IMG/VR virus record: IMGVR_UViG_2061766007_002855
Location: 16,722-80,721 of that record
Origin: a virus
Taxonomy: Duplodnaviria > Caudoviricetes
Direction: 5' to 3' (one strand)
Length of the DNA: 64,000 nt
Shown: positions 15,005 to 38,391 of the stretch, in pieces
How positions within the stretch are numbered: position 1 is the stretch's first letter
How the letters are laid out: every line of letters starts with the position of its first letter
Position numbers and translations under genes: made by a program
Notes under the pieces: model-generated
What the model was told of the DNA's origin: nothing
What the model saw: the letters and a program-made list of their open reading frames with translations, nothing else
Databases searched by the model: none

Positions 15005-16099
15005 TTATTCCATATCCAAATACTGATTTAAAACATTAAGAACACGTTCCTTATGAGTATACAAGTCAGAAACATCTTCAATATCTACCTTCTTACCTTT
15101 CTTACCACCATTGCTTGTAAGAGTGATTTCATCATAGAATTCAACTCTGAGATGATCTGGATTATTGAAGTGTAAACGTACAATCGGGAATCTTTGATTG
15201 TCATCAAATAATATATTGCAGTAATGTTTTCTGTCTCTCATTGCAACACGATTAACATCTAAAATCTCTGAAGCAATAGAACGGATAATGAAATAAGCTT
15301 CTTTTTCTAAATCAGTAGTGATAACTCCTTCTTCATTAATTGATTCTTCAGCTTCAACCGCATTGTTGTCTTCTTGTTGTGTTTCATTGCTTGCAACTGC
15401 ATCAGATAATGTTTTGTTTACTTTTTCATTAATGATTTCATTAACGGCCACAGAAATGATTGTACCGAATTTTTCTTTAACATTTTGAGTTAATATGCCC
15501 TCGTATACTTGTTTTGCAACAGCTTTAATGAACTCATCAGATGGTGCTTCGAATTCAGAGAGTAATGTTTTCTTGATGAGGTTGCGGTATTTCAGATTAT
15601 CTGCACGTGAGACCACTTCATCCACATCAAAGTTCACTTTCTTGAATTTCTCCAATTCTTTAATATCTTTCTTATTCAAACTTAAGAGGTTTATGTCCAG
15701 GAATGGTTTTTCATCCATCCTGTTATTGTCATCTCCAGTTGTGAAGAATTTATATTCCACCCCATTTGTAAGGATTCCGATTTGAATATCTGTTATGCTG
15801 AAATAACGATATAGCTGTGAGATGTTGTCTGTGTTTAATTCATTTGCTGCGGATTTGCATTCAATGAAAACAATTGGTTCACCGTCTTCAAGTATTGCAA
15901 AGTCTACCTTTTCACCTTGTTTGGTCCCTACATCTGCAGTATATTCTGCTCTAACTTCCGCAGGATTTGTGGTATCATAACCCATTAAGCGTAGGAAAGG
16001 AGTTATGAGTGCTATTTTTGTTGTTTCTTCACTATCAATATGTTCGAGTTTTCCTGGAATTGTTTTTGCGAATTCCTTTAATTCATCTTCAAATGTCAT
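15005..16099 (-). CDS. HsdR N-terminal-like PD-(D/E)xK nuclease domain protein (stand-alone, prophage cargo type)
   Basis: EETTKIALITPFLRLMGYD...VRAEY...EKVDFAIL...IVFIECK...GILTNGVEYKFF; no helicase domain; TATA-like TTTATA at about 16151-16156 on - strand. Confidence 0.8.
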   Translation of the reverse strand: MTFEDELKEFAKTIPGKLEHIDSEETTKIALITPFLRLMGYDTTNPAEVRAEYTADVGTKQGEKVDFAILEDGEPIVFIECKSAANELNTDNISQLYRYFSITDIQIGILTNGVEYKFFTTGDDNNRMDEKPFLDINLLSLNKKDIKELEKFKKVNFDVDEVVSRADNLKYRNLIKKTLLSEFEAPSDEFIKAVAKQVYEGILTQNVKEKFGTIISVAVNEIINEKVNKTLSDAVASNETQQEDNNAVEAEESINEEGVITTDLEKEAYFIIRSIASEILDVNRVAMRDRKHYCNILFDDNQRFPIVRLHFNNPDHLRVEFYDEITLTSNGGKKGKKVDIEDVSDLYTHKERVLNVLNQYLDME

Positions 16100-19124: not shown

Positions 19125-19164
19125 AATTTCTATCTCTCATTTCTATTTTAATGTTGAGAGAGAG

Positions 19165-19596
19165 CATTTGAAAAGTAATATTTTGTATTGCTCTTCAAAT
19201 GGGTTTATCATATTTCAGGTCATATGGTATATATAGTCTATGAAATATGATAACATTTTAATTGTTTATCATATTCATAGTAATATAGTATAAATATTCT
19301 CCTAAATATGATTAACAATTGTGCCCTCTCTGTTTGGTTATTTCTGTGTTTTGAGAGATAAATAACTAATTATACAATGATGTACTTTTTTGTACATCAA
19401 AGTTTTTAGTTCACAATTGTTATATAGCATTTTATAACACATAGTATAAAAACTTTTAGGACAACCCAAAAAAAATAAGGGGGCCAACCAACTACAAAAT
19501 GTAGTCAATTGACCCCCTAAAGTATAAAACAAAATCCCATCACAAAAAAATATCCAAACAATTGAAGCAAAATAGAATTCATGAGAGTGCTCTCAT
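19165..19596. repeat. palindrome-rich non-coding region upstream of the recombinase (candidate attP/operators)
   Basis: CATTTGAA/TTCAAATG (19165/19194); ATATGATAAC..GTTTATCATAT (19245-19274) plus third copy at 19203; TGATGTAC-T6-GTACATCA (19378-19399); TGTTATA/TATAACA (19418/19433); ACTACA-AAA-TGTAGT; ATGAGAG-TG-CTCTCAT (19581-19596). Confidence 0.55.
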
Positions 19597-19818
19597 AAAT
19601 AACAATTCTACATGTCTAAATAAAATTATTATCTTACCAATATCATTCTTTTATAAATTAATAAACATAGGAATATTTATTTTAAAATATTTAGTTTTAC
19701 ATCCAACAACATTTCACATTTTCTGCTACTACCGGCTAGATGATCCATTTAACTTCCAAGATATTTTCTTCCAGGAATAATGTTTTCTACAATAATATAA
19801 TATAATCTACCTTTGATA

Positions 19819-19980
19819 CTATTGTAACATTTTCAACTCCGCTTCACAAGCTTTAATTTCTCTACCAACTTCCAAAGCTTCATCCGTCAAATCCGCATGC
19901 TGCATAAACTTCGCATGCCTACGCTTAAGATTACGGATTTTAGTTTCAAGAAGCACTTTCCTCTCATTCTTATCTAACAT
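19819..19980 (-). CDS. small helical protein (53 aa, not in ORF track)
   Basis: GGTGG RBS then MLDKNERKVLLETKIRNLKRRHAKF...LKMLQ*. Confidence 0.6.
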   Translation of the reverse strand: MLDKNERKVLLETKIRNLKRRHAKFMQHADLTDEALEVGREIKACEAELKMLQ

Positions 19981-19994
19981 AAAAAACCACCATT

Positions 19995-20183
19995 TTATTG
20001 GACATATTTATCATAAACAAGTTTAGATTCATCAGTAATATCATGTTTATGTCTTGCCTCATTTATCGCAACTTGTTTTTCCAGAACTTCATCGGTAAAA
20101 CCAACTTCTTCCATTAACTTATTAACCTTTGCTTGTTTACGATTCAAATTCCATCCAATAACTTTCTTAATAGGATTAAACAT
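19995..20183 (-). CDS. hypothetical protein
   Basis: 62-aa ORF just downstream of endolysin. Confidence 0.65.
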   Translation of the reverse strand: MFNPIKKVIGWNLNRKQAKVNKLMEEVGFTDEVLEKQVAINEARHKHDITDESKLVYDKYVQ

Positions 20184-20189
20184 AAAGAT

Positions 20190-21956
20190 TTACCCCCTTG
20201 TAATTACCATAACACTTTTCTGTGAAATTCCATTAATATAACTCTGGAATTCAGATTTAGAACGATATTCAATATATCCACAATAACAATCATTACATGA
20301 CCTGTAACCTAAACTGTTCTGGACATTAATGTTACTGTCATTCACAGCATTAATAACTTCATAATGGCCGTCAGACAGACGATAGAGATTATGTATAATA
20401 CAATCTTGATTCTTGGACTCAATAATCTTTTTAACTCCACTCCAACCAAGTTCACTAAAACTATACCATTTGACAGATAATTTCACACCTAATTGTTTAG
20501 CTGCTTTTGCAATTGCAGTTTCCAAACCTTGATGATCTGTACCTCCACTACCAGTTCCAGCCCATCCTGCAAGTGTAGCTTGAGGAATCACTTTACCAGT
20601 TAAGTTTCGTATACATTCCTGCATACTGTGAGGACCACAATAAACTCCGTTATTCTGGCCCATATTGTTACAGCCGGATTTGGTTGCATGGCCGTATTTG
20701 GATTTAGTAGTTGAAGTATTAGTTTTTGAACTGGAAGAAGATGATGATGCTGTGAATCTACCGGAATTATAAGTACAATAATTAGGTAAAGTCTTATTAT
20801 GGCCGTAATACCAGACAATGATTCTTGCCAATGCATCAATACTTACACGTGGCCGGACTTTCTTCTTAGATTTCACGCTAGTCACATAATTAGGTGCTTG
20901 GCCATGTTCTTTAATATACTGCACAACCCTTTTGGATTGATTCTGGAAATCAGATGGATAAATATCTTCGTTAATGGTATCTCCGGTTGCTTTAACGCAA
21001 GTTTTAACACTTGGAACAGCAGATAAATTTTTTCCAAGATTATTAACATGCCATGATAAAATATACCATACTTGAGGCCAAGTATACTTCACATTAGCAA
21101 CAGTTACTGAGGAGGGTAACTTCTTATTAGCTTCAACATATTTCTTCACAGTAGTGGCCATAGCTTTAATATTAGCTGCGGAAATACCAGTAGATTTAGT
21201 TGTAGTTTTAGTTGTGGTTTTGTCTTGCAATGAAGTGAAATTAACATTTGGTGATAAACCATAACGGAACAATATTATTCCTTTTGCACCATTACTTATG
21301 CATGTTTTAGCATCAGTTAATATTTCATTGGCAGATAATGCGGTTGGATTATCATCAGATTTATATGATTGCAGACCACTCCAAATCTTTGCTTTAGCGC
21401 TGAAGAATTTTGTAGTAGATTTCAACCAATCAGTACCAGCTTTGTAGTTACCTTTGTACTGCATTGGAATGATTGCATCAACAGTTTTAGCTAATGCATC
21501 AATGTCTTGCCCATAATATTTCTTGCATTCTGTTTCAGGCATTACTGCACATGAAAGAAATGTTTTTGGATTTTGTTTGCGGACAGTTTTCACAAAATTA
21601 GTGATTGCATCTGCACCACCAGATGTTTTATATGCAGTTCCAGGATATCTTAAATAATCAAGATGAATCCCTTTAACATTAACTATAGCAGCATATTTCT
21701 TGATCTCTTTTAACTTCGCATTCAAGTTAGTTGTTTTAGGGTTATGCCAACTTCCATCATAGAAGCATTGCACCCAAATATGCACGTTAATATTATTATT
21801 TTTTGCTTTTTTAATCCAAGATGTGACCTTGGATTCTCCATGTGCTGTGAAAGCATAATAGTTTAAGAATATATCTGTAACTCCATTCTTATGTAGAGTT
21901 TCAAGGTTTACCTTATTCATATCTGCTCCAAACAGCCAATAACCAAAATTTTTCAT
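20190..21956 (-). CDS. endolysin: glycoside-hydrolase-like TIM barrel + pseudomurein-binding repeats + C39-like cysteine peptidase
   Basis: GIHLDYLRYPG barrel motif; PMBR-like AMATTVKKYVEANKKLPSSV and QSKRVVQYIKEHGQAPNYV; YCGPHS...GHYEVI. Confidence 0.8.
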   Translation of the reverse strand: MKNFGYWLFGADMNKVNLETLHKNGVTDIFLNYYAFTAHGESKVTSWIKKAKNNNINVHIWVQCFYDGSWHNPKTTNLNAKLKEIKKYAAIVNVKGIHLDYLRYPGTAYKTSGGADAITNFVKTVRKQNPKTFLSCAVMPETECKKYYGQDIDALAKTVDAIIPMQYKGNYKAGTDWLKSTTKFFSAKAKIWSGLQSYKSDDNPTALSANEILTDAKTCISNGAKGIILFRYGLSPNVNFTSLQDKTTTKTTTKSTGISAANIKAMATTVKKYVEANKKLPSSVTVANVKYTWPQVWYILSWHVNNLGKNLSAVPSVKTCVKATGDTINEDIYPSDFQNQSKRVVQYIKEHGQAPNYVTSVKSKKKVRPRVSIDALARIIVWYYGHNKTLPNYCTYNSGRFTASSSSSSSKTNTSTTKSKYGHATKSGCNNMGQNNGVYCGPHSMQECIRNLTGKVIPQATLAGWAGTGSGGTDHQGLETAIAKAAKQLGVKLSVKWYSFSELGWSGVKKIIESKNQDCIIHNLYRLSDGHYEVINAVNDSNINVQNSLGYRSCNDCYCGYIEYRSKSEFQSYINGISQKSVMVITRG

Positions 21957-25600: not shown

Positions 25601-26233
25601 TCACCTTGTTGCAATTAAAATCTTCAAATCATTCGGATCACTATTATTAATCGTACGAATAAACAAAGTCTTCGTATTATCATCATAAAAATAAGCACCA
25701 GTAGCAGATTTCAAAGCATTTAAAGTTTTAACACCTTTATACCCATTAATTGATTTAGCAACACCGCTAACTTCTTCAGAAACACCAACAACAGGATTCT
25801 CTTCAACAGTAAAATAAATATTATACCTTGTATTACCAGTATCAGCACTTGAATAATGCTGCCAATTACTCCTTTGACTACTGGTTAACAAATCAATAGT
25901 ATAAGTGACTTCAACACTATCAATATCATTAGTTATGAAAGAATCATTGATAGCATCATAAACATCATGACTTATCAATACATCACCACTAACTGCACCA
26001 ATCTCAGTAGTGCCTAGAATCTCTTTTGCAGTGCAACTACAACTTAAATTAATCTGTTTAGTTTCAAGATTAACTTCACAAACACATTTTTTCCGGACAG
26101 TCTCATTTCCAAGACTAATATCCGATTTCATAGCAACAATACTACTATTACCAAAAACAAGATATTCTATAGGAGTAAATTCATTATTTATAATCCTGTT
26201 CAATAGAAATGATTCACCTAACAATGTAATCAT
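25601..26233 (-). CDS. tail fibre attachment/baseplate-associated protein (putative)
   Basis: IEYLVFGNS...DISLGNETVRK resembles N-termini of tail-collar/fibre proteins. Confidence 0.5.
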   Translation of the reverse strand: MITLLGESFLLNRIINNEFTPIEYLVFGNSSIVAMKSDISLGNETVRKKCVCEVNLETKQINLSCSCTAKEILGTTEIGAVSGDVLISHDVYDAINDSFITNDIDSVEVTYTIDLLTSSQRSNWQHYSSADTGNTRYNIYFTVEENPVVGVSEEVSGVAKSINGYKGVKTLNALKSATGAYFYDDNTKTLFIRTINNSDPNDLKILIATR

Positions 26234-26496
26234 ATGAATTTCACCTCAGAGTTATTAATTTTCAATTTTGTATTAACATTAACCTGATTAGATTCCCCTA
26301 CAGTTTCAGAAGATTGGATTAAGTTAATATGAATCTTTTTTGTTGGGGAAATCAGTTTTTGCAACCTAATTGTAAGGTTAGGTACATTTTCACGTGAAAT
26401 GTTCGCAGGTATTTTGTTCGGGTCGAAATATAGATCATAATTGTTTGGTGTCATATATGGCTCATGCCAGAAATGTTTGCAATGTTTATTTACCAT
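26230..26496 (-). CDS. hypothetical protein
   Basis: 88 aa, 4-nt overlap. Confidence 0.6.
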   Translation of the reverse strand: MVNKHCKHFWHEPYMTPNNYDLYFDPNKIPANISRENVPNLTIRLQKLISPTKKIHINLIQSSETVGESNQVNVNTKLKINNSEVKFI

Positions 26497-26535
26497 AATT
26501 ATGACTTCCCTTTTTTATTTTAAAAAAAGAAGATA

Positions 26536-26802
26536 TTATTCTTCAATAATAATATCTTCTTCATAAGTTTCATCATGAATTTCTACAATAACATGATAAT
26601 CTTTTATTGTTGAAGTACCACATCGACCAATACCGTTATTATCAGTTTGTGTTCCGAAAGCGCTTCCATCATCTAATTTGATTGTGATAGGAGTGTTCGG
26701 ATAGTCGGTATGTGCTTCAATTTGGAGCACTTCTATTTGTTGAGTTCTTTTGTCGTCAATTGGTATTTCTTCGGTTTCGATATTATATTCAAGTTTGAAC
26801 AT
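26536..26802 (-). CDS. hypothetical protein
   Basis: 88 aa, GAGGTGA RBS. Confidence 0.7.
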   Translation of the reverse strand: MFKLEYNIETEEIPIDDKRTQQIEVLQIEAHTDYPNTPITIKLDDGSAFGTQTDNNGIGRCGTSTIKDYHVIVEIHDETYEEDIIIEE

Positions 26803-26865: not shown

Positions 26866-27324
26866 GTAAAAGATAAAGATAATATACTCACATTCAACCA
26901 ATGGAGTGGAACAGACTATGATAAAAATACTACTGGTTTTGCACATTCAACAGATGTTACAATCTATTCCTCATCTGAAAAATCAGTTACAGGGGATTAT
27001 AGTTTAAAAGCAAAAGTAACCGGAAGCGGAAATAGTAAATGGTTTAGAGTAGCCCCTACAATAAGCGATGATAGTTTAACTGACATTACTACTTCACTAA
27101 AAATATTAACCTATGCTAATGCCCAATTATTCATAACTCAATATTCAGGTAGTACTTCAGTTAAATCTAATAATATATCTATCAGCTCATCAGATGATTG
27201 GCAAACAATAACTCTTACAGACACTATAACATCCAGTATTGATAATATCCAGTTCCATATTAGTTTTTATGGAAATCAGGGAGAGGAATGTTATACTGAT
27301 GATTGGAAATTAATCATAACATAA
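26866..27324 (+). CDS. silent cassette 1, CBM/galactose-binding-like domain (no own start)
   Basis: VKDKDNILTFNQWSGTDY...CYTDDWKLIIT*; absent from ORF track. Confidence 0.8.
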   Translation, partial: VKDKDNILTFNQWSGTDYDKNTTGFAHSTDVTIYSSSEKSVTGDYSLKAKVTGSGNSKWFRVAPTISDDSLTDITTSLKILTYANAQLFITQYSGSTSVKSNNISISSSDDWQTITLTDTITSSIDNIQFHISFYGNQGEECYTDDWKLIIT

Positions 27325-27330
27325 TATTTT

Positions 27331-27768
27331 GTAAAAGATAAAAATAATTTGTATCCTTATCAAGTATGGTCTTGTGGGGATTATGATTCCAGTTTGCCTT
27401 TAACTAATTCGGATCATAATGTTTCTATGGAAATATCTGGTGAATATTCTGTGAATGGAAATAAAAGTTTCAAATTCGTGAAATCAAATGAAAATACTGC
27501 ATTTATTATGTATGATTGCCAATTTTCAGAACAAAAACCTTTAACCCTTACAGGGAATATCAACACAAATATTCGTTGTGTTATCGCATTAAGGTTAAGG
27601 AAGGATTCTGAAAATATAACTGTAAATTCTGTAGACATATCTTCTACAGGGAATTTTGAAGTATCTGTTACTCCAACAGAAGAATATGATTATACCCGAC
27701 TATTTATTACAGTATATGGAACTACTGGTAACATCATCTATTTAGATAATCTTAAATTGAGTACTTAG
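27331..27768 (+). CDS. silent cassette 2
   Basis: VKDKNNLYPYQVWSCGDY...IYLDNLKLST*. Confidence 0.8.
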   Translation, partial: VKDKNNLYPYQVWSCGDYDSSLPLTNSDHNVSMEISGEYSVNGNKSFKFVKSNENTAFIMYDCQFSEQKPLTLTGNINTNIRCVIALRLRKDSENITVNSVDISSTGNFEVSVTPTEEYDYTRLFITVYGTTGNIIYLDNLKLST

Positions 27769-28226
27769 TAAAAGATAAAACCAACATTTTATCTATAAAT
27801 TTATGGAGCGGAGGGGAATTAAATGATTCCGTTTCTTCCTCTGAAATTACATTAGTAGGATACTCCGCAACAGCATCTAATGAATTTGCAAGTAATGGAT
27901 ATAAAAGTTTAAATTTAACAAAAACAACTAATTCCTCAGATTACGTTAGAATACCATTTGATATATCTGAAACTTCCAGTTTAACATGTAAATTAGATAT
28001 ATTCACACCAAATTGTAGTTGTACTGTAATGTTATTGCAATACAATAGCAGCAATACTCTGGTTAATCAAACATCTGTTACTGTAAATCAAAGCAATGAA
28101 AAATCATCAGTCCTTATTGAACCTTCATTACAGGAAACATGTACTCATTGTAATATTCAAATTAGGGAAAATGATACTACTCAAGGAGTCTCCTTTTGGG
28201 TAGACAATATTCAATGTTATCAGTAA
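27768..28226 (+). CDS. silent cassette 3
   Basis: VKDKTNILSINLWSGGEL...FWVDNIQCYQ*. Confidence 0.8.
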   Translation, partial: VKDKTNILSINLWSGGELNDSVSSSEITLVGYSATASNEFASNGYKSLNLTKTTNSSDYVRIPFDISETSSLTCKLDIFTPNCSCTVMLLQYNSSNTLVNQTSVTVNQSNEKSSVLIEPSLQETCTHCNIQIRENDTTQGVSFWVDNIQCYQ

Positions 28227-28678
28227 AAGATAAAAACAATTTATTACCCTATAATAAATGGTCCTGTGGGGAATACCAAAATGCAGATAATTTTTATATA
28301 TTTAGTGGGAATAAAGAACTCACTTCAGACCATGTAAGTATTGGAAACAAAGCTATCCATTTTTATAATAACCCCCCTTCAAATATTAGTATAGGAGTTA
28401 CATACTTAGATGTTTCAGAAGATCAAATAGGTAAATCATTTGAATTCAAAGCAAAAGTATATAATCCTAATGAGAATGCTTTGGTTCAAATGATTATTGG
28501 AACTCCAACTGAAAATATCAGAAATATTGTGATTCCTCAAAATACTGATTTTGTTGAAGTTAGTTCTACATCCATAACTGTTCCTGAAACAAGTGACTTA
28601 AGATGTATTTTTAATGTTCGTGAAACTGACAAGGTATACAATTTATTTGTGGATGATATCTCATTAACCATTCAGTAA
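28223..28678 (+). CDS. silent cassette 4
   Basis: VKDKNNLLPYNKWSCGEY...FVDDISLTIQ*. Confidence 0.8.
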   Translation, partial: VKDKNNLLPYNKWSCGEYQNADNFYIFSGNKELTSDHVSIGNKAIHFYNNPPSNISIGVTYLDVSEDQIGKSFEFKAKVYNPNENALVQMIIGTPTENIRNIVIPQNTDFVEVSSTSITVPETSDLRCIFNVRETDKVYNLFVDDISLTIQ

Positions 28679-29127
28679 AAGATAACGATAACCTCCTCAC
28701 ATTTAACCAATGGGTTTGTGGAGAATACTCAAATAACTTTACAGATTTCAATGTTCCAAATCCAACATATACTTCATTAACTGAAGAATATGCTTTCAAT
28801 GGAAACAAATCTATTAAACTAATTCAATCAAATGGATCAATAAATATAGCTTTGCAATTGAATTTAGATTTGGGTTCTGATTACATTGGTAAAACTTTAA
28901 AGTTTTCTAGTAAAATATTTAATAAAGATGTGTCTACATCTGCATTGAAAGCATATATTAGTAATTCTCAAGTAGCTAGTGTGGATATTCCAGTTAATTC
29001 TAGTTTTAATTCTTATAATTTGCAATTTGAGTATACTGGAACTGCAGTAATTAGTTTTATTAATTATGGTTCAACTTCTGGTCAAGAAATGTTTATTGAT
29101 GATTTGAAATTAGAAGTCATTTCATAA
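28675..29127 (+). CDS. silent cassette 5
   Basis: VKDNDNLLTFNQWVCGEY...FIDDLKLEVIS*. Confidence 0.8.
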   Translation, partial: VKDNDNLLTFNQWVCGEYSNNFTDFNVPNPTYTSLTEEYAFNGNKSIKLIQSNGSINIALQLNLDLGSDYIGKTLKFSSKIFNKDVSTSALKAYISNSQVASVDIPVNSSFNSYNLQFEYTGTAVISFINYGSTSGQEMFIDDLKLEVIS

Positions 29128-29131
29128 TTTT

Positions 29132-29590
29132 GTAAAAGATAATGCGAACTTATGTACTTATAATGTATGGGCATGTGGAGAATATCTAAATTCCACCAAC
29201 GTGTTTGTTGTTATTCCTCCAAATGTAATACTTTCAACTGATTATTCTACAATAGGAAACTCTTGTTTTAAAATAACAAAAACAACAAACAACAATGAAT
29301 ATCTGGGAATAGATGTGATATCTCTAAGTGAAATTGATACAACTAAATCTGCAAAAATATCAGGAGATATTTATTTACTTAATGGGTCTTGTACCATACA
29401 GCAACGTTTTTATGATGAAAATAACACCCAACTCAATGCAGACTCTATTCAAATTACTCCTTCAAAACAACATTTTGAAATAACTTCCCAATTAGTAAGT
29501 GATTTAAGTAGGATTCGTTTTTTTATCACATTTTCAGGAATGGCTGGAGATGTTTATTATCTAGATAATCTATCTTTATCCATTCAGTAA
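29132..29590 (+). CDS. silent cassette 6
   Basis: VKDNANLCTYNVWACGEY...YLDNLSLSIQ*. Confidence 0.8.
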   Translation, partial: VKDNANLCTYNVWACGEYLNSTNVFVVIPPNVILSTDYSTIGNSCFKITKTTNNNEYLGIDVISLSEIDTTKSAKISGDIYLLNGSCTIQQRFYDENNTQLNADSIQITPSKQHFEITSQLVSDLSRIRFFITFSGMAGDVYYLDNLSLSIQ

Positions 29591-30054
29591 AAGAGAAACG
29601 AAATTTACTCTCACACAGTTTATGGTCCTGTGGGGATTTCAATGAAGAGGTCATCACTATTATGCATTCATGGAATACTAATACACTTGAAATAACCTCC
29701 GACTATGTAACCATTGGAAACAAAGGATTAAAAGCAACACAATCCGGAAATGGAAAATTTATAGGCCCACAATTAACTGATGTAAGTGATTGTATTGGAA
29801 AAACATTAAAATTTTCTGTAGATATTTTAACTCTCCACGTTGATTTGAAAATTACATTAATGCAAAACAATGGTACAACTTATACTTCAACTCAATCTAC
29901 AAGCATTTCAAGTGGGTCATCTACTCATGCTGAAGTAAGCTCAACAATTGAAAGTGATACTACAATGATCTGGATAAGAATTGAACAATCAGGTACCTCT
30001 TGGGGAACTGGAGAAATATTTTATACTGATAATTGGTGTCTAGAAGAAGTTTAA
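29587..30054 (+). CDS. silent cassette 7
   Basis: VKEKRNLLSHSLWSCGDF...YTDNWCLEEV*. Confidence 0.8.
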   Translation, partial: VKEKRNLLSHSLWSCGDFNEEVITIMHSWNTNTLEITSDYVTIGNKGLKATQSGNGKFIGPQLTDVSDCIGKTLKFSVDILTLHVDLKITLMQNNGTTYTSTQSTSISSGSSTHAEVSSTIESDTTMIWIRIEQSGTSWGTGEIFYTDNWCLEEV

Positions 30055-30500
30055 ACTTTCTCTAAAATTATCTCATCAACATAAACAATACCCACATGAT
30101 TATTATTGTTCACTTGTACTTTTAATTTCCCAGTAGCTTGAGTAACAAAATTAGTTATACTCATTGTTTGAACAGAATCAGAAGAATCAATAGTTACAGA
30201 TTGAACATGCCCATTAGCTACTTCAATAAATTGGAATTTTACAGATACTCCACTATTATTATAAACTTTTATTGAAGAGGAATATGTTTCATCAGGAACA
30301 ACATCTATTCCAATAAAATTTATAAATAAAAATGTTTCAGTTTCATCGAAGTTTATTTTAAATGATTTGTTTCCTTTAGTTGAAAAATCTGATGAGGAAG
30401 ACACTTTATGGATATGCCCATCAAGTATTCCTGTAGTGTTGTTGAGGTAATCTGATCCACTCCAAATATTATATTCTGCAATATTTGTGTTATCTTTTAC
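30051..30500 (-). CDS. silent cassette 8
   Basis: VKDNTNIAEYNIWSGSDY...YVDEIILEKV*. Confidence 0.8.
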   Translation of the reverse strand, partial: VKDNTNIAEYNIWSGSDYLNNTTGILDGHIHKVSSSSDFSTKGNKSFKINFDETETFLFINFIGIDVVPDETYSSSIKVYNNSGVSVKFQFIEVANGHVQSVTIDSSDSVQTMSITNFVTQATGKLKVQVNNNNHVGIVYVDEIILEKV

Positions 30501-30952
30501 TGAGCAATCAATTTTAAATTATCTACGAATATTTCAGTTCCAACAGCATCATAACTAGCAATCTGAATTACAAATGTATCATTAGTATCAGAACTGTTTA
30601 ATGATATTGAAAATTCTTGTGTACTATTTTTAGGAATATTAATAGATTGCTGTGTAACAGTTGAGGAATCGGATTGTTCAATTAAATAGATAACTGTAGG
30701 TTCATCTTTTGATGTTTTTATATTTCCAGTTAATACCACAGTTTTTGATGGAATGCTTTCATTATATTTAGTGTTGCTGCTGAAACTACTAGTTTGGATT
30801 TTTAAGATTTTTAAACTTCTAAAACCATTAACACAATAATCTGTACTGGATGATAATGTAATTCCACCATTCCCATTGAATGTATTTGTGTTTTCTAGGT
30901 AATCTGTGCAGGACCATTGTTGATGGGATAATAAATTCTCTTTATCTTTTAC
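30497..30952 (-). CDS. silent cassette 9
   Basis: VKDKENLLSHQQWSCTDY...FVDNLKLIAQ*. Confidence 0.8.
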   Translation of the reverse strand, partial: VKDKENLLSHQQWSCTDYLENTNTFNGNGGITLSSSTDYCVNGFRSLKILKIQTSSFSSNTKYNESIPSKTVVLTGNIKTSKDEPTVIYLIEQSDSSTVTQQSINIPKNSTQEFSISLNSSDTNDTFVIQIASYDAVGTEIFVDNLKLIAQ

Positions 30953-31392
30953 TGAACAATTATTAATGAAACATCATCAATATATAGAATTAATGGATTA
31001 CGTGCAATATATTGTAATATTAAATTAGATGATTCTTCAGATTTTGTTCTTGATATAGTAATTTCTTGAGGGGCTGCATTACTTGGGATATCTACAGAAT
31101 TATATGAGTCAGTTTCTGCTAGTCTCAATTGTACTGTATAACCAGTATTATTTAGAATGGTTATTTTTGCAGATATTTGAGAGCCCACAGCTAATTCGGT
31201 GAATCTGTCAAGACTTACTACTGCATACCCTTCAATTGTACTTGTTACTTTTAAACTTCGCTCACAATTTGAAGCCCAATCAGTAGATGATAATAGTTCG
31301 ATAGATGGGGAATGTTCAAATCCTGAAGTGCTTTTTAAATAGTCTGTTCCAGACCATGCATTATGATTTACTAAATTGTCTTTATCTTTTAC
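30949..31392 (-). CDS. silent cassette 10
   Basis: VKDKDNLVNHNAWSGTDY...YIDDVSLIIVQ*. Confidence 0.8.
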   Translation of the reverse strand, partial: VKDKDNLVNHNAWSGTDYLKSTSGFEHSPSIELLSSTDWASNCERSLKVTSTIEGYAVVSLDRFTELAVGSQISAKITILNNTGYTVQLRLAETDSYNSVDIPSNAAPQEITISRTKSEESSNLILQYIARNPLILYIDDVSLIIVQ

Positions 31393-31395
31393 AGA

Positions 31396-31851
31396 TTATT
31401 CTTTCATGCAAAATAGATCATCAATATATAGTTCTCCATTTGATTGATTAATAGCAAAAACTAATGATGAAATCTCTTGACTAATTGTTCCAGAGATAGT
31501 TATTTCTTGCATATTATCTGATGTAGGTACTGTAACAGTTTGCAGATTACTATATGCTCCATTAACATTTTCAGATAATCCCATAGTCAAAGTACTTATA
31601 GATTTATTTAAAATTTTACATTTAAAAGTAACAGTATCTCCTTCATTCAATCCAAGTATATGGGTTTTGATAGTTTGATAAACAATACTTTCTGTTTCAT
31701 TAAGTATTTTTAGACTATGCAATCCATTAACAACCCAATCACTACTTGGGTTTGCAGATATTGTGCTTTTCACAGTAAAATCAGTTAAATCGTTGGAATA
31801 ATCTGTTGCTGACCATACATTATATCCGAGTATGTTAGTTTTATCTTTTAC
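31396..31851 (-). CDS. silent cassette 11
   Basis: VKDKTNILGYNVWSATDY...YIDDLFCMKE*. Confidence 0.8.
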   Translation of the reverse strand, partial: VKDKTNILGYNVWSATDYSNDLTDFTVKSTISANPSSDWVVNGLHSLKILNETESIVYQTIKTHILGLNEGDTVTFKCKILNKSISTLTMGLSENVNGAYSNLQTVTVPTSDNMQEITISGTISQEISSLVFAINQSNGELYIDDLFCMKE

Positions 31852-32276
31852 TGAGCAACAATAACAAAATCATCAAAATAAGATGATTGTAAACTTGTAG
31901 TAACACTCAATCTAATACCTCTGATATTATTATCAGAAAGTGTAAATGAGATAGTTTGAACAGTATCTGATGCAGTATAAAATATTGCCATATTCTCTGA
32001 TTCTCCAATTAAAAGTCTAATTGCACCATTAGCATTAGGAGAATACACTTTTACAGTAAATTGATAATCTCCTGTAGGTAATTCAAAACCATATTCTGAA
32101 GTATACCCAGTATAATCCTCATTAACCCTAGTTAACTTAAAGCTACGTTCCCCAATACTAGACCAATCTGTTGATGAACTGATAATATTTGGTCTATTAA
32201 ATCCTGAAACAGATTTGAGAACATCGGTACCAGACCATACATTATTATCAGGGATAATGTTATTTTTATCTTTTAC
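31848..32276 (-). CDS. silent cassette 12
   Basis: VKDKNNIIPDNNVWSGTDV...YFDDFVIVAQ*. Confidence 0.8.
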   Translation of the reverse strand, partial: VKDKNNIIPDNNVWSGTDVLKSVSGFNRPNIISSSTDWSSIGERSFKLTRVNEDYTGYTSEYGFELPTGDYQFTVKVYSPNANGAIRLLIGESENMAIFYTASDTVQTISFTLSDNNIRGIRLSVTTSLQSSYFDDFVIVAQ

Positions 32277-32731
32277 GGATTTGTTTCGGTTATAATAATA
32301 TTATCTAAGAATAAGATAGTGTCATTTCCATACCTTACAATTCTAATGCTAATATACTTAACCCCTTCAACTGTCACATCAGTTAAAGTTATTGGATTTT
32401 GTGAAGCACTACTTGCCCCCACTTGCACAGTCTTCAAGGATTGGTGGTTGGAATCATATTGTATTATTTGTAAATGAAATGATGAAGTAGTTATATTTTG
32501 GTCAATAGATACTTGTAAACTTTTATTTTCTAAAGAATATTCCATAGAATTCCATAAAGTAATATAAGATGTATCTGAGGTATTAGTTATTTTAAAACTA
32601 GCATTATGATTTGTTGCCCATTCATTACTTACTATTCCTTGTGCTGCACTCAATGTTAAACCAGAAGTAGTATTAGTATATTCTCCACCTGACCATAAGT
32701 TATGAGATGCAAGGTTATTTTTATCTTTTAC
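32273..32731 (-). CDS. silent cassette 13
   Basis: VKDKNNLASHNLWSGGEY...FLDNIIITETNP*. Confidence 0.8.
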   Translation of the reverse strand, partial: VKDKNNLASHNLWSGGEYTNTTSGLTLSAAQGIVSNEWATNHNASFKITNTSDTSYITLWNSMEYSLENKSLQVSIDQNITTSSFHLQIIQYDSNHQSLKTVQVGASSASQNPITLTDVTVEGVKYISIRIVRYGNDTILFLDNIIITETNP

Positions 32732-33192
32732 ATATAACATTCTAATGAATCAATATAAAAATTAACTGGAGTACTCGCATCAATAGCACCTATATTTAAT
32801 TTAACACTATCAGTACCCTCAGTAATAGTTGTTGTTAATTCAATATTTGTTCCTTGAGCATTATCACTAACTGGAACGGTAACAGAAGTATTAACAGTAT
32901 CATTTAATAATAAATGTGATTTACATTGTGAAAAAGAATATATTTTTGCTTTAAAAGTAATTGATTTGCCAATATCATCTTCAGATATACTTACAGGGAA
33001 TCTAATCCAAGAAGAAGGAATATATTCTCCTGAAGTAATGCATTTTATTGATTTATTCCCATTGGTAGACCAGAATGAGGATATTTCAAATACTATTCCA
33101 TTTCCTTTTGAATATTCTGAGGAATTTAAATCATTAGATACTTCTCCACCACTCCATACATTTGCAGAATATAAGTTTCTGGTATCTTTTAC
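32728..33192 (-). CDS. silent cassette 14
   Basis: VKDTRNLYSANVWSGGEV...YIDSLECYM*. Confidence 0.8.
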   Translation of the reverse strand, partial: VKDTRNLYSANVWSGGEVSNDLNSSEYSKGNGIVFEISSFWSTNGNKSIKCITSGEYIPSSWIRFPVSISEDDIGKSITFKAKIYSFSQCKSHLLLNDTVNTSVTVPVSDNAQGTNIELTTTITEGTDSVKLNIGAIDASTPVNFYIDSLECYM

Positions 33193-33641
33193 TGAGCAAT
33201 TAATTCCCAATTATCCATATACAATATTGTTCCCAAAGAAACTGTATCAATACGACATAATACATAATCGGTATTTTCTAAAATACTAGTTGATACACTA
33301 AACTGATTATTTAAGTTATCTGAAGTTACACTTACTCTATCGCTAGTATAATCTCCATTAACAGAATTATGTTGATATATCGCTAAATTTACTTGGGAAT
33401 TTGTTAATATATTAGCTGAAAAAGTTAATACGTGGCCAATTAAAGTATCAACATTTACTTTATAACCACAATATACATTTGAAGTAGTTTCCTTTATTTT
33501 AACTGAATAATCTCCTTTAATAGATAATTCATTTGAAATTTGATAGAAATCAACTCCATTAGTTACATTAAATATTCCTGTTGTACTATAATCTCCCATA
33601 CTCCAAGTGTTATATCCCAATAAATTATCTTTATCTTTTAC
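33189..33641 (-). CDS. silent cassette 15
   Basis: VKDKDNLLGYNTWSMGDY...YMDNWELIAQ*. Confidence 0.8.
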   Translation of the reverse strand, partial: VKDKDNLLGYNTWSMGDYSTTGIFNVTNGVDFYQISNELSIKGDYSVKIKETTSNVYCGYKVNVDTLIGHVLTFSANILTNSQVNLAIYQHNSVNGDYTSDRVSVTSDNLNNQFSVSTSILENTDYVLCRIDTVSLGTILYMDNWELIAQ

Positions 33642-33646
33642 AGATT

Positions 33647-34489
33647 TTAAGATTCTAATAATTCCCACTTATCAGTATAAAAAGTAACATCCCCTGATGA
33701 AGATACCACTCGCATTTTTAACTCTGTTAAATTGGATGGAAATTGACTTGAAGAAATACTAACAGATAATGTGCATGGTTCTCCAGTTGTTGATTCACTA
33801 CTGTATAATACTACATTAGTATCCCCCACAGCGATTAATAATAATCGTACTGTGGAATCAGTTAAAATATCTAGTTTAGCAGTGTAATTTTTAGTTGAAT
33901 CTACAGAAATGTAGTGATATTCTGTGTAATTAGTAGTGTTGACAATTGTATGGTTTATACATTGATTACCATTACTGGACCAGTCAGAAGATGGGGTTAC
34001 ATTGGAATTTCCTTCAGTTGATGCAAGATATCCTTGAGTAGTATGTTCAAATGAAATACTATTATTATAATCACTTCCAGTTGCTAAATCAAAAGGTAAA
34101 ATATTAGTTTTATCTTTTACAAACATGCGGATATCATCTCCTGCATGTGTGCCTCTCACAACTGCATGAACATCATAAATATCCGCTTCAGTAACACGAT
34201 GACTGAAAGTGGAAATACCATTACTATCAGTAGCATCCATACCCAAGAGTGTGGTGCCTTTATACCATTCAACTACTTTGTTCGCTAATGCAGTATTGTT
34301 TTTATCTTTCACAGTACAAGTGTAAGTTACAAGACCAGTTACTACAGCATTTTCATTTGTTATATTTACTTTTAAATCATTTTGGTTCATAAAATCATCC
34401 ATTTCAGATAGTTTTTCATTCACTCCTAAATCGGAGAGTACTTGAGTTACTTCGTCTTCAATATTAAGCAAGTTTTCTATATCCGGCAA
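33647..34489 (-). CDS. adhesin/receptor-binding protein: constant 123-aa Ig-like N-terminus + currently fused cassette 16 (33647-34120)
   Basis: GGTGA RBS, TTG start; YTCTVKDKNNTALANKVV Ig-like segment; in-frame junction ...DIRMF|VKDKTNIL at 34120. Confidence 0.85.
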   Translation of the reverse strand: MPDIENLLNIEDEVTQVLSDLGVNEKLSEMDDFMNQNDLKVNITNENAVVTGLVTYTCTVKDKNNTALANKVVEWYKGTTLLGMDATDSNGISTFSHRVTEADIYDVHAVVRGTHAGDDIRMFVKDKTNILPFDLATGSDYNNSISFEHTTQGYLASTEGNSNVTPSSDWSSNGNQCINHTIVNTTNYTEYHYISVDSTKNYTAKLDILTDSTVRLLLIAVGDTNVVLYSSESTTGEPCTLSVSISSSQFPSNLTELKMRVVSSSGDVTFYTDKWELLES

Positions 34490-34501
34490 TATGATTCACC
34501 T

Positions 34502-37246
34502 CTATTTGAATTTTGTATATTTGATTGTATAATCATCGTAAACAATAGCCATTAACAAACCAGTTAAGGATTCTAATTCAGCACGGGTAATGTTTTCTGA
34601 TGTGCTTGTTGAATGATATCTTTCAAATTGCACATTGTCGCCTACTTTGTTTAGATTCATAATACAGTTATCTAAGTCACCAAGAGTAGTGATTTCAGAT
34701 ATTGGTTTAGTTAGATAATTCCAATCACGTGTACTCTCGTCATATTGTAAATCTGTTACAACATGAGTATAATCTGATAAAACACTAGCTAAACTAATGA
34801 GTATGGTTAATGTTTTACTTGCATGTGAATCATCATAATCCAAGTCTCCAGGATAATTTGCATTTAATATTAATTCTCCAGGATTATTTGGTGTTAAACT
34901 TCCAGAATATTCTCCATTAGAATTGGTGGTGTAATTCTGGTTGTTTACATTTATGATTTTATTAGCGATTGGATCATCATATTTATCAATTAATGTTCCG
35001 CTGAAACTAATTGTTTCACCAATGACATATGTTGTCTTTGAAGTGTTTAATGTGAGATATGATTCACCAAAGACATGTGCAGTTGTATATTGAACATCAT
35101 ATGGATCATATTGTATTCCAACAAGTAATCCTCGTAGATTCATCATATCTGTTTTTGAGAGATAATTCTTTGTTGAATATGAATGGAATCTTCCAAATTG
35201 GACATCATAATTTTTATATTTGAGATTTAATATTGCACCGTTTAAATCAGCGAGAGTGTTTATTTCATTCACTGGTTTAGTAGTGTAATCCCAATCTTTG
35301 GTGGTTTCGTTGAATGTTAAATCCATTACGACAAAATCATATTCAGATAGGAATTCTCTTAATCTTAGGTTTATATTTGTGGTTGCAGTTGCTGTTGATG
35401 ATTTGTATTCTTCGTCTCCAACAAATGTTGCATTTAATGTGAATTCTCCTATTTTTCCTGCAGTTATGTTACCAGTATAAATTCCGTTTTCATTGGTTGT
35501 GCATGATACGGTGTTTTGGTTGTTATCAGAAACAAGGATTGTTTCATTTGCTACAACATTTCCGTATTTGTCGATTAATGTTCCTCGGAATTGTACTGGT
35601 GAACCAACTACGTAATTTCCTGTTATGAATTGTAAATCCAATCTTGTGATTATAAGTATTGGAGCGTTTGTGAATAGGATTAATATTTTTGCGAGTTCAC
35701 CGTTACCATTATTGTTTGTGAATTGGGTGTCTGTTACATTACAGATGTCTCCATGGTATTGTAATGTGAGGTCTTGTAATAGTACGGTTGTGTTTGCTGT
35801 TAATGTGAAGAATAGGTCTTCTTGCAAGTTTTCTATTAGTACGCTTCCACATCCCATTATTGTGCAGTTTTTGGTTATGTTGATTGGAGTGTTTATTTCA
35901 TATATTCCGCTTAATAATATGATTAGGTTTTTATCTCCATTAACTGAGTCAACTGCTTTTTGGATTGTTTTGAATGCGGAGGCACGTGTTTTACCATCAT
36001 TATTATCATTACCTGTTGAAGGGTTTACATAGAAATTTCCATTGTTACATCCTCTGACTGATATGATGATTTCTTGTGTTCCGATAATTTCCCCTTTACT
36101 GTCTTTGCCGACAATGCGGAATGTATTGTCTTTATCTCTTGGAATGTCTTTACTAGGGATTGTTTTTTGTGATTCTTTAATGTCGCCGTATAGTAGTTTG
36201 TTATCGAGATAGACATCTACAGTATGTTCGTCTGTTAATTCATGTGCAAGACTATCTAAAAATTTGAAGTATAGGATTACGTCTTGATTTTTTACTGGGA
36301 TTTTTGTTGATGCTTTAACGAAGAAGTATCTTCCAAGGTCAGTTGATCCATCACAGAATGTGTCTAAATGTTCCCATGGTTCTGGTGTCCATGGGGTTAT
36401 TTCTCCGGTTTCTTCGTTTAATGTTCCGCTGAACCATCTGTCACCATCACTAAGGTAGTTTCCTTGTGCATCTTTTCTGTTATCTATGAAGTTGGGATGT
36501 TTTTCTAAGTCGAAAACTTTGAGCAATAGTTTTTCTCTGTTTTCAATTGTTGCATCGATACCGTATAATTTCCAGATTTCAAGTACTGGTGCGGGGGTGT
36601 CGTGTAATCTTAGATTGTATTCCAGTTGTCGTTTCATGTAGTGATAATCATCTTCGGTTGCACGGTCATTGTATGGTGGTTCTGTTGCAGGGTAAAGTTC
36701 AGGGTCAACGATTAAATATTTTTTACGTGGAATGTTTGGTTCGCCTAGTTTGTCCAGGCTTATGTCATGGTCGAATTCATTTCCTTGTATTTCATCGTTT
36801 TCTGGCCATCCTTTCACTAAGGTGTATTCTTCATATGTTTCTACTTCGATTTTAAATTTATGTTGAGGTATGATATCTGCAAGACTTTTATCTTCAACAT
36901 CATTTAATGTACTGTCTTCATATGAATACTTAAAGTTATCAATAAAATCAGTATACTCAAATGATTCACTATATATGACATCATCATTTTTGTATAAAGT
37001 TACTGTTTTAAGATTTTTGAAATTAGCAACAAAATTAATCACATACTCATAAGGTTCAACCTGATCCTTCCAAATCAACAAATTTTTATTCAATTTGAAA
37101 TTCTGATAAATCTTAAACAGATCATTATCCAATCTTTGAAACCTACGATTAGTAACCCATTGAGATTTACTGAAATTTGATGAATCACTTTTATCTAAAA
37201 ACCAAGGAAACATCTCTTTCAATTGTCTTAAACTATCTTTCATCAA
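34502..37246 (-). CDS. baseplate-associated adhesin-like protein (beta-helix-type region + duplicated Ig-like modules)
   Basis: Follows baseplate J; FYVNPSTGNDNNDG...FKTIQKAVD motif; duplicated GTLIDKY and DWxYxTKPxxEIxTLxDL segments. Confidence 0.7.
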   Translation of the reverse strand: MMKDSLRQLKEMFPWFLDKSDSSNFSKSQWVTNRRFQRLDNDLFKIYQNFKLNKNLLIWKDQVEPYEYVINFVANFKNLKTVTLYKNDDVIYSESFEYTDFIDNFKYSYEDSTLNDVEDKSLADIIPQHKFKIEVETYEEYTLVKGWPENDEIQGNEFDHDISLDKLGEPNIPRKKYLIVDPELYPATEPPYNDRATEDDYHYMKRQLEYNLRLHDTPAPVLEIWKLYGIDATIENREKLLLKVFDLEKHPNFIDNRKDAQGNYLSDGDRWFSGTLNEETGEITPWTPEPWEHLDTFCDGSTDLGRYFFVKASTKIPVKNQDVILYFKFLDSLAHELTDEHTVDVYLDNKLLYGDIKESQKTIPSKDIPRDKDNTFRIVGKDSKGEIIGTQEIIISVRGCNNGNFYVNPSTGNDNNDGKTRASAFKTIQKAVDSVNGDKNLIILLSGIYEINTPINITKNCTIMGCGSVLIENLQEDLFFTLTANTTVLLQDLTLQYHGDICNVTDTQFTNNNGNGELAKILILFTNAPILIITRLDLQFITGNYVVGSPVQFRGTLIDKYGNVVANETILVSDNNQNTVSCTTNENGIYTGNITAGKIGEFTLNATFVGDEEYKSSTATATTNINLRLREFLSEYDFVVMDLTFNETTKDWDYTTKPVNEINTLADLNGAILNLKYKNYDVQFGRFHSYSTKNYLSKTDMMNLRGLLVGIQYDPYDVQYTTAHVFGESYLTLNTSKTTYVIGETISFSGTLIDKYDDPIANKIINVNNQNYTTNSNGEYSGSLTPNNPGELILNANYPGDLDYDDSHASKTLTILISLASVLSDYTHVVTDLQYDESTRDWNYLTKPISEITTLGDLDNCIMNLNKVGDNVQFERYHSTSTSENITRAELESLTGLLMAIVYDDYTIKYTKFK

Positions 37247-38391
37247 ACCATCTCAATTGTAATAGTATTGGTTTTCCCAATCTCTTCATCACGGATAGCT
37301 ATATAATCTTCAGGATATTTGAATTGAATACTTTTTAATTCAGGTATTTCCGCATCCAAGAATACTGCAAGTTTATGCGGTATGAAATCTTCACCAATAT
37401 TCAACCCATTTGTCCAGGTCTCATCATTTCTGTACCCTCCATCAATGAAAACTTTGATTGCAGATTCGATTTTTGATTTAATATCTTCTTTCTCCAATTC
37501 ACTATACGGGTTGATTTGGTCAATATCAATATTAACTACTGCATAAATATCAATATATTTCTCTGATGGAGCGAACATTGTAATATCTTCATTAGCTTGT
37601 GAAACAACATTCTGCAAGTCATCATAAGCAGCATTTAAAATATATGGTGTTCCAGGGTCAAGGATAACTTTCATCGTACCTGTACCATTCCAATTAGGTA
37701 TTAATTTATACCCTTCAATCCCATCGAAATTAGCGAAGTATTCTTCATATGCAGCATTGGAACCTTTAATTAGAATTTCACGCCATTTATATAATAATTC
37801 ACGATATTCATCATCTGAATATTCATCAGTTCCACCAGTACTTGCCTTTGCATTGGTAACTAAAAAACGATACGGAAGATTGGAAACTACATTTGTTATT
37901 GCATTTTCAATAATTCTAACATGACTTCCAGATTCAACACTTAAACATTGTACTGTAGCGGAAGCACTATCAACAGGAATGTATAATGGTTCAACTGTTT
38001 CATATTGAATACCGTTTTCTGTTGAAACAATTATTCCTTCTTCTAATGAAATATCACTGGTTAATTCTCCTTCATTATATGTGAATGTTACTTCAACACT
38101 TGCTGCGGTTGCACTTGGACGGGGTATTCCTTTTTCATCTCCGAAATTATCAAGGTCAACGCCTGTTGCTAATGCAAGATTATTACTGTTATAGATTAGT
38201 GTAGCACGTTCGTAGAACATTTCAAACATTTTACTGATGGCTGATTTATCCATAACATAATAGTTACTGATATCCTGCCGGTTTGCTATTACTGATGAGA
38301 AATCATCTGCTTTACTGATTAATCCCATTTCTACACTATCATCCAATACGGCTTTAAAAATTTCATCATAATCTTGTTCTTCATAATTCAT
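37243..38391 (-). CDS. baseplate J-like wedge protein
   Basis: LALATGVDLDNFG...RPSATAASVEVTF...GGTDEYSDDEYRE. Confidence 0.85.
   Translation of the reverse strand: MNYEEQDYDEIFKAVLDDSVEMGLISKADDFSSVIANRQDISNYYVMDKSAISKMFEMFYERATLIYNSNNLALATGVDLDNFGDEKGIPRPSATAASVEVTFTYNEGELTSDISLEEGIIVSTENGIQYETVEPLYIPVDSASATVQCLSVESGSHVRIIENAITNVVSNLPYRFLVTNAKASTGGTDEYSDDEYRELLYKWREILIKGSNAAYEEYFANFDGIEGYKLIPNWNGTGTMKVILDPGTPYILNAAYDDLQNVVSQANEDITMFAPSEKYIDIYAVVNIDIDQINPYSELEKEDIKSKIESAIKVFIDGGYRNDETWTNGLNIGEDFIPHKLAVFLDAEIPELKSIQFKYPEDYIAIRDEEIGKTNTITIEMV

Follow-up and report, generated by a model that had tools for sequence, protein, structure and literature searches.

A probable 16-cassette shufflon for the tip of an adhesin in a tailed virus attributed to rumen Methanobrevibacter

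Introduction

Inversion of DNA at short sites, by which one gene is joined in turn to several alternative C-terminal parts, is known from phages, plasmids and bacteria, and here we compare these systems with a locus in a virus of the class Caudoviricetes (IMG/VR record IMGVR_UViG_2061766007_002855). The DNA analysed, called the window below, is a stretch of 64,000 nt comprising bases 16722-80721 of the complete 80,721-bp viral genome with terminal repeats; positions are those of the window unless another sequence is named. At 26866-34489 it holds the gene of a small putative adhesin, made of a constant N-terminal region and a C-terminal cassette (the tip), together with 15 silent cassettes. 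By design the locus is a shufflon; what sets it apart from the closest published systems is the methanogen host, the number of tips (16-17), the lack of an adjacent invertase, a site that encodes the boundary residues and often a stop codon, and the use of one site by unrelated folds.

The Rin shufflon of Bifidobacterium prophages integrated at dnaJ2 (Mavrich et al. 2018, PMC6109161) is, like the present locus, borne by a virus, and combines a constant N-terminal receptor-binding-protein gene with several start-less C-terminal segments. A short asymmetric 11-bp site (rix) stands before each segment and inversions are found between related prophages, both as here; a tyrosine-type recombinase was proposed to act on the sites (PMC6109161). 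Rin differs in that its own armless tyrosine invertase flanks the array, apart from the phage integrase, whereas here none is adjacent and there is an integrase only. It has 'several' segments and a bacterial host, against 16-17 cassettes and an archaeal host here, and the site and the cassette fold are unrelated.

In the R64 (IncI1) shufflon with its recombinase Rci, a single adhesin (PilV) receives alternative C-termini through multiple inversions at asymmetric sites, the same design as here. Only one arm of the R64 sfx site is conserved, and the asymmetry restricts recombination to inverted copies; the unconserved left arm of the site described below recalls this one-armed conservation. R64 varies a plasmid pilus adhesin, with four segments, seven sites and rci adjacent, while the protein here belongs to a virion. 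In a network analysis, the tyrosine recombinases of archaea showed no direct link to Rci (PMC8371274).

Variation of a phage tail-fibre C-terminus by site-specific inversion, as here, is also carried out by Min of the phage-plasmid p15B, and by Gin of Mu and Cin of P1. These are serine invertases serving far fewer alternatives, and no resolvase-family protein is present in the genome analysed. Their sites are dyad-symmetric and work with a host-factor enhancer. For Min, several crossover sites and many isomers are described (PMC6109161). The opinion of an earlier note on this DNA, which had been written from the letters alone, that sixteen alternatives are far more than those of the two-state viral invertons known to it is right as to number and not as to principle: multi-state Min and Rin were already known (PMC6109161), and two-state invertons are not the whole precedent.

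An archaeal tailed virus that switches tail-fibre proteins by inversion, as here, is the haloarchaeal myovirus phiCh1. Its int1 gene lies between two convergent fibre genes with clusters of 30-bp repeats, and the outcome is variants of two genes. The locus described here consists instead of an array with 15 silent stand-alone domains; its site is another one, and no recombinase adjoins it. As summarised in a later paper, inversion by the tyrosine recombinase Int1 alters the phiCh1 tail-fibre proteins, which differ in adhesion specificity (Roessler 2004; Klein 2012; via PMC8371274).

The vsa locus of Mycoplasma pulmonis serves a bacterial surface lipoprotein in immune and phage evasion and is not viral, unlike the locus here. 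It has one expression site with the 5′ end, and silent 5′-truncated genes are activated by inversion inside the coding region; there are about a dozen alternatives, a comparable number, and the HvsR recombinase is encoded in the locus.

Full-text searches of the literature on viruses of methanogens, including those of Methanobrevibacter, found no report of a shufflon, an inversion or an invertible tail fibre, and neither viruses nor archaea were covered by a systematic survey of programmed inversions (PMC9881135). The MSTV1 paper (PMC11375127) was considered as a precedent for an invertible adhesin and set aside: its text is without the words 'inversion', 'shufflon' and 'adhesin', and its 'hypervariable region' is a set of small accessory genes. 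In the literature searched, the present locus is the largest virus-borne switch of its kind that we found, and it extends shufflons to archaeal viruses at a scale reported there for no virus. Methanobrevibacter is the leading producer of methane in the rumen and in the human gut; little has been established about its viruses, hardly any of which can be grown.

Results

Anatomy of the cassette array

The motif GTAAAAGA has 25 copies in the window, against 4.1 ± 2.2 expected, and none of 100 shuffles reached this number. Sixteen of the copies lie at 26866-34120, spaced 425-479 nt, with seven on the + strand and nine on the − strand, and every one of the 16 opens a frame of 142-157 aa that runs up to a stop. 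Seven silent cassettes, in the orientation opposite to expression, fill 26866-30054 on the + strand (starts 26866, 27331, 27768, 28223, 28675, 29132 and 29587). Eight more, silent and in the expression orientation, fill 30051-33641 on the − strand (starts 33641, 33192, 32731, 32276, 31851, 31392, 30952 and 30500). The two blocks meet tail to tail in a TTAA at 30051-30054 that contains the stop codons of both central cassettes.

The expressed cassette (33647-34120, − strand; 157 aa plus stop) is joined to a constant region of 123 aa (34121-34489, − strand), which has two N-terminal helices and an Ig-like domain and ends in ...IRMF right before the site; read from 34121 upward on the − strand, the DNA preceding the site is ...GATATCCGCATGTTT. 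Translation of the constant region starts at a TTG at 34489 with an AGGTGA Shine-Dalgarno (SD) sequence, and only the cassette at 34120 is fused to such a region. The match of this region to Big_1 (Ig-like) has an E-value of 1.7e-6 and is below the Pfam cutoff.

Between cassettes the amino acid identity is only 18-29%, yet they align over their full length and have in common VKDxxN, a W and Y/F-x-D; a hidden Markov model built from the 16 finds exactly those 16 in the genome. The SD motif is absent before all 15 silent cassettes. Their first in-frame ATG, GTG or TTG is at residue 24-154 in 12 cases and at residue 7-8, with no SD, in two; one cassette has none. The silent cassettes are not translatable on their own. 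The persistence of intact frames of ~150 codons in DNA of 30% G+C indicates recurrent selection on the encoded protein. With regard to the number, length, strand and meeting point of the cassettes, the single start-bearing 123-aa Ig-like N-terminus, the intactness of all frames and the common pattern with divergent sequence in between, the earlier note proved exact.

The crossover site as a DNA signal

As the site, the 8-mer had been named; it is present at all 16 starts and understates the conserved unit, for T(-3) and an 11-mer are conserved as well. The full site is T(-3)nnGTAAAAGATAA, within which GTAAAAGATAA is invariant or conserved in 15 of 16 copies at every position; the copy at the expression site is at 34107-34123 on the − strand, with the 11-mer at 34110-34120. 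T(-3) is found in 16 of 16 copies, although it belongs to the previous cassette, to a spacer or to the constant region and is outside the cassette frame. Within the whole genome the 11-mer occurs at the 16 cassette starts only. The valine codon at the site is GTA in all 16 copies, compared with 28% of the Val codons in the other genes of the virus (P about 1e-9), and thus the constraint acts on DNA. At the same time the site encodes Val-Lys-Asp at the domain boundary, and in many copies its internal TAA is the stop codon of the preceding cassette. The site is asymmetric, since its left flank mirrors the right arm at no more than two positions, T(-3) and C(-2), which pair with G(+6) and A(+7).

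The first base of the site is uniform in each genome: all copies are GTAAAAGA in the window, in the related contig L007 and in a related provirus (G001), and all are ATAAAAGA in contigs L003 and L005. The 11-mer is likewise uniform per genome, being ATAAAAGATAA in L003 and L005 and GTAAAAGATAA in G001, L007, L011, L012, L141 and L142. A concerted change of the first base is what one expects if copies must match in order to recombine.

A second site-like sequence (TVKDKNNTALAN) is found inside the constant Ig domain at 34290-34310 on the − strand, in direct orientation and 192 nt upstream of the expression site. The window copy, GTGAAAGATAAAAAC, differs from the core by one base; L010 (position 561), L011 (10178) and L015 (10172) have the perfect GTAAAAGATAAAAAC, though with A in place of T at −3. 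It could be a relic or a decoy.

Cassette swapping seen in other assemblies

A search of 5.8 billion proteins with the constant region yielded 38 proteins with the same N-terminus (75-100% identity; total length 265-285 aa), and these carry differing cassettes after ...MF|VKD. One of them, P0121 (contig L009), agrees fully with the window in its N-terminus. Nucleotides 1-1408 of L009 correspond to window 35519-34110 (− strand, 94.4%) and nucleotides 1398-1528 to window 28675-28805 (+ strand, 100%); what both alignments have in common is precisely the 11-mer. An inversion that pairs the expression site with the + site at 28675 would be expected to leave this very junction. A second protein, P0126 on contig L010, has window cassette 32276 on the constant region (95% aa identity; 95.7% at the nucleotide level over 464 nt, into the start of 31851), an arrangement that is two inversions away from the window in the model described below.

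A third comparison is with L007, an 81-kb contig from an independent study, whose flanks are 98.1% and 99.2% identical to those of the window and which has 17 cassettes. Cassettes 26866, 27331 and 27768 are in the same places in both, while cassette 28223 is present in L007 at 100% aa identity, inverted and in the other block, with its edges at sites; window 28220-28685 matches L007 in inverted orientation with no mismatch over 466 nt.

Cassettes were also grouped into types (clusters at ≥85% aa identity), with two further full arrays, L141 and L142, included, and the 95 cassette copies gave 74 types. Across six arrays and the 38 fusion proteins, nine types were found in at least two of the states expressed, silent in the same orientation and silent in the opposite orientation. 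Thus, type A is expressed in L141, P0129 and P0130 and silent-opposite in L142; type H is in the same orientation in L007 and opposite in L141, where types M and O are also silent-opposite; M and O are expressed in P0133 and P0135. The comparison of cassette order across related genomes that the earlier note had proposed revealed differing arrangements, and the note's central claim, that a new tip is installed when the expression-site copy and a copy of opposite orientation recombine by inversion, is supported by the L009 junction, the flipped cassette of L007 and these nine types. We conclude that the locus is very probably a multiple-inversion switch, i.e. a shufflon, which varies the tip of an adhesin.

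A joint between 28232 and 30477 in contigs X3/X6 had been considered as a further swap. It rests on 42 nt of ~86% identity in the conserved cassette start and may come from a different cassette, and it was not counted.

Layout and the inversion model

Recombination was simulated with the rule that only inverted copies can recombine. The block in expression orientation always preceded the opposite block, and the two central cassettes were never separated, because no site lies between them. Every cassette reached the expression site; from the window arrangement seven do so by one flip and eight by two. For n cassettes the number of isomers is 2(n−1)!, about 2.6e12 at n = 16, and the proteins that these encode number 16. 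Six of six full arrays (9+/7−, 11+/6−, 6+/3−, 5+/7−, 5+/4− and 3+/1−) show the two blocks that an inversion-only model predicts. That successive inversions can reach every cassette while the plus-block and minus-block are preserved had been suggested before, and the simulation confirmed it.

The cassette beside the centre on the opposite-strand side begins with VKEKRN... and is of the same type (J, ≥85% aa identity) in L007 and L011, the sole match at that level among the cassettes beside the centre. Window cassette 29587 has the VKEKRN start and the NWCLEEV end of its L007 counterpart but is 38% identical overall. On the other side of the centre, the L007 cassette is 50% identical to window 30500, and the L011 cassette is closely similar to it, as judged from the first 20 and last 8 residues. 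Cassettes of the VKEKRN/IKENRN type have GAGAA and not GATAA as the right arm (window 29587, + strand; L007 14881; L011 13498; L006 5766; L005 20001). They flank the tail-to-tail centre in every array examined, and the expressed copy of G001 is of this type.

In the mechanism that we propose, a site-specific recombinase would exchange strands between the expression-site copy and any inverted copy, turning round the DNA that separates the two and fusing a new tip, in frame, to the constant region. Any of the seven opposite-strand tips would take one such flip, and any of the other eight would take two. Productive recombination would be restricted to inverted copies, which would keep the convergent two-block layout and prevent the array from deleting itself. 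Virions made from different isomers would carry different glycan-binding tips, and a single provirus lineage could try many host cell-surface variants.

With 16 or more interchangeable glycan-binding tips, host recognition in such viruses would be highly dynamic and the prediction of host range from a single assembly unreliable; surfaces of methanogens would have to vary enough to reward a library of tips. The arrays would also explain why assemblies of such viruses break or differ at this locus. The tips would form a ready panel of binders for methanogen surfaces.

Predicted structure and function of the tips

An AlphaFold2 model of the 280-aa protein, computed from an alignment of 32 sequences, has two helices, an Ig-like sandwich (residues 40-125) and a beta-sandwich (126-280), with pLDDT of about 90; the VKD encoded by the site ends the last strand of the Ig domain. 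We propose that the two N-terminal helices are docking helices of a small adhesin. In Foldseek searches the modelled tip resembles jelly rolls of carbohydrate-binding modules (CBM22, CBM61 and CBM16; target TM-score 0.6-0.67), and its matches in a viral library are CenC-type modules, found in the tail fibres and minor tail proteins of phages. None of the 16 cassettes reaches a Pfam gathering threshold; sub-threshold matches are found in one or two of them (Agarase_CBM 0.0027, CBM_6 0.014, CBM_4_9 0.025). As modelled, the tip is therefore a CBM-like beta-sandwich by fold and not a sequence member of any CBM family; the CBM4/9-type jelly roll of the earlier note holds at the level of fold, as judged by AlphaFold2 and Foldseek, and not as membership in a Pfam family.

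Provirus G001, whose array is that of the isolate of IMG genome 2799112916 and has one expressed and at least 12 silent cassettes, has a second cassette family, VKDKDINYxxYDIG...KNFxIY, of about 137-168 aa. Nine members are in G001 (L006 216-4854) and, with one in L005 (20456-20905), there are ten. No homology to the first family is detectable (hhalign probability 4%). By AlphaFold2 and Foldseek the second family would form a lectin/ConA-like sandwich, with CBM66, GH16 and clostridial neurotoxin binding domains among its matches, all of them fold resemblances only. In G001 cassettes of both families start with the same 11-mer, so that one array mixes two folds, and the 74 types (95 copies) come from at least two unrelated folds.

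Weighing the shufflon against other readings

Several observations count against the shufflon as we propose it, or against parts of it. No recombinase lies beside the array, and the only one is 7.7 kb away; its attachment region (TATTTATACTATATT) is unlike the cassette site; and its homologs are present at 42-45% identity both in L012 (42%), which uses the same site, and in the array-less L013. Array size ranges from 1 to 17 among relatives, and 13 of the 17 cassettes of L007 are without a counterpart in the window despite flanks that are 98-99% identical. All rearrangements were seen between strains or assemblies and not within one clonal population. Finally, we infer glycan binding and host recognition by the tip from its modelled fold.

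The first group of observations poses the question of which enzyme flips a site that has no adjoining invertase. In the complete genome there is one tyrosine recombinase and no match to resolvase-type (PF00239), large-serine (PF07508) or IS110/Piv-type (PF01548) families, in searches where positive controls gave matches. The open reading frames (ORFs) flanking the array have no recombinase domain; a dedicated flanking invertase was not found there. The sole recombinase, a protein of 399 aa (17925-19124, − strand), is labelled integrase by PHROGs, and a 78%-identical homolog stands at the edge of a provirus beside the host genes for PALP, HhH-GPD and EPSP synthase; it is certainly a true integrase. 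The attP boundary lies approximately at 19296-19315 (− strand); going upstream from the integrase gene, homology with the integrated relative stops here, after ~172 nt. Among solved structures the recombinase has no sequence match. As invertase it is an unproven candidate, and homologs occur in viruses with and without an array. An archaeal viral integrase, IntSNJ2, does perform both integration and inversion (PMC8371274). Repeated ATATGATAAAC motifs are found upstream of the integrase gene (19125-19320), two of them as an inverted pair, and are kept in the integrated relative L018 at the junction of provirus and host; they may be integrase arm sites or binding sites of a regulator.

The same shufflon could also be flipped in trans by a host enzyme, XerA or another host tyrosine recombinase. 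Such an enzyme would account for the lack of a dedicated invertase in the viral genome and for an att region that does not resemble the cassette site. The GTAAAAGATAA site is shared with a virus whose integrase is only 42% identical (L012), and it is used by G001, in whose 83%-complete record no integrase homolog was found; one site across differing integrases fits a conserved host factor better. For a second phage locus in Bifidobacterium, supply of the invertase in trans has been suggested (PMC6109161). The structure of the site would speak against XerA: dif sites are described as two 11-bp inverted arms with a 6-bp spacer (PMC2958812), whereas the sequence at the cassette site (TnnGTAAAAGATAA) is asymmetric, its left arm mirroring the right-hand GA at T(-3) and C(-2) alone and giving 1-5 of 6 matches. 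The integrase of the virus, acting at a second site, is our tentative first choice, somewhat short of an even chance; a host enzyme is a doubtful but close second; and a viral protein that we did not recognise as a recombinase is an unlikely third. The chemistry would in our opinion be that of a tyrosine recombinase.

The second group of observations concerns the repertoire. With the same constant domain, there are 4 cassettes in L012, 9 in L011 and in L142, 12 in L141, 16 in the window and 17 in L007, and five relatives (L013-L017) have no silent cassettes at all; this range of array size means that gains and losses occur. The window and L007 have 4 of their 16-17 cassettes in common, and the border between common and uncommon DNA falls at sites. 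As repertoires differ between near-identical genomes, inversion is insufficient; cassettes must be exchanged or replaced as well, and the same sites may serve for this between genomes. L007 compared with the window, and likewise L011, L141 and L142, suggest traffic of cassettes between viral genomes besides inversion. The fuller picture would be a 16-17-way tip shufflon which has no dedicated invertase, being served by the integrase at a second, unrelated site or by a borrowed host recombinase, and whose sites also trade cassettes between co-resident genomes, giving a population-wide pool of tips; taken as a whole, we hold it to be nearly as probable as its negation.

Searches for near relatives by exact peptide and exact DNA in viral_contigs and metagenome_contigs gave no match, nor did a scan of genome_contigs with the alignment of the variable protein. 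A scan of genome_contigs for two sites at cassette spacing returned, among the matches listed, only single chance matches in AT-rich bacterial genomes and was uninformative.

It may be argued that there is no programmed switch, each lineage being effectively fixed and the rearrangements being rare evolutionary recombination at hot-spot sites between co-infecting viruses. All differences seen do lie between assemblies, and the largely different repertoires of 98-99%-identical genomes do need exchange between genomes. The main contigs of the probable source sample, X1 and X2, show the window arrangement only, with no strand-changing joints; Logan contigs drop minority variants, and this result is hence uninformative on switching within the sample. 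X6, X1 and X2 have loose ends at sites, for which no match was found among the sequences compared. Against fixed lineages, the 15 silent cassettes could keep their frames only under recurrent selection on expression, and nine types were caught in different states. Contigs of relatives that end inside or just beyond the array (L003, L005 and short fusion contigs such as L009) could reflect mixed arrangements. On balance we regard fixed lineages as improbable and infer frequent switching within one lineage, by way of the shufflon.

That each cassette is a separate small gene, the array being a tandem of adhesin paralogs with no switch, is very improbable. The intact frames are in its favour, and gene callers do list some internal ORFs. 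It is contradicted by the absence of SD motifs before the silent cassettes, by GTA, which is not a start codon, by first in-frame starts that lie deep inside the domain in most cassettes, with none in one, and by database proteins in which a cassette continues the constant region; nor would separate genes account for the two convergent blocks and the common 11-mer.

Assembly chimeras at a repeated site, which can mislead assemblers and might be suspected in L009, which diverges from the window in its last 33 nt, are hardly credible as the source of the alternative junctions, since only 11 nt are common at the junction and cassettes are 18-29% identical, far below assembler k-mers, such junctions are present in ENA, Logan and NCBI assemblies from different pipelines, and the 81-kb L007 contains both borders of the flipped cassette.

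Genome context and host

The genes around the array are all on the − strand of the window. In gene order, a sheath initiator precedes baseplate J (37243-38391), which is followed by a 914-aa tail fibre with Ig-like domains (34502-37246), directly upstream of the 280-aa variable adhesin gene (constant region plus expressed cassette, 33647-34489). After it comes the cassette field (26866-34120; seven sites + and nine −). In the distant viruses L002 and L005 the module is placed after three further tail genes.

The end of the array is adjoined by two conserved 88-aa ORFs (26230-26802, − strand) with no family match, and beyond them, also on the − strand, are proteins of 210, 827 and 331 aa and a lysin (20190-21956) that has a pseudomurein-binding repeat and a DUF4015 glycosyl-hydrolase-like barrel; the integrase gene comes next. 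The two 88-aa ORFs are kept beyond the variable gene or array in all relatives, array-bearing or array-less; the pair could be assembly chaperones of the adhesin or accessory factors.

The public runs in which the array is present come from the bovine gut or rumen and belong to 11 studies. The pseudomurein-binding lysin, homologs that bear the NCBI name Methanobrevibacter in the protein search and a related provirus integrated in a Methanobrevibacter metagenome-assembled genome indicate the host, and together the data point to a contractile-tailed, temperate virus of rumen Methanobrevibacter.

Two further observations concern the relatives. The lysin homolog in L015 has, besides, a weak match to Peptidase_C71 (pseudomurein endoisopeptidase). 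The array-less L013 has a gene with SNIPE/T5orf172/MUG113 nuclease domains beyond its integrase (19653-20840), a cargo that differs from the HSDR_N-like gene at 15005-16099 assigned to the window.

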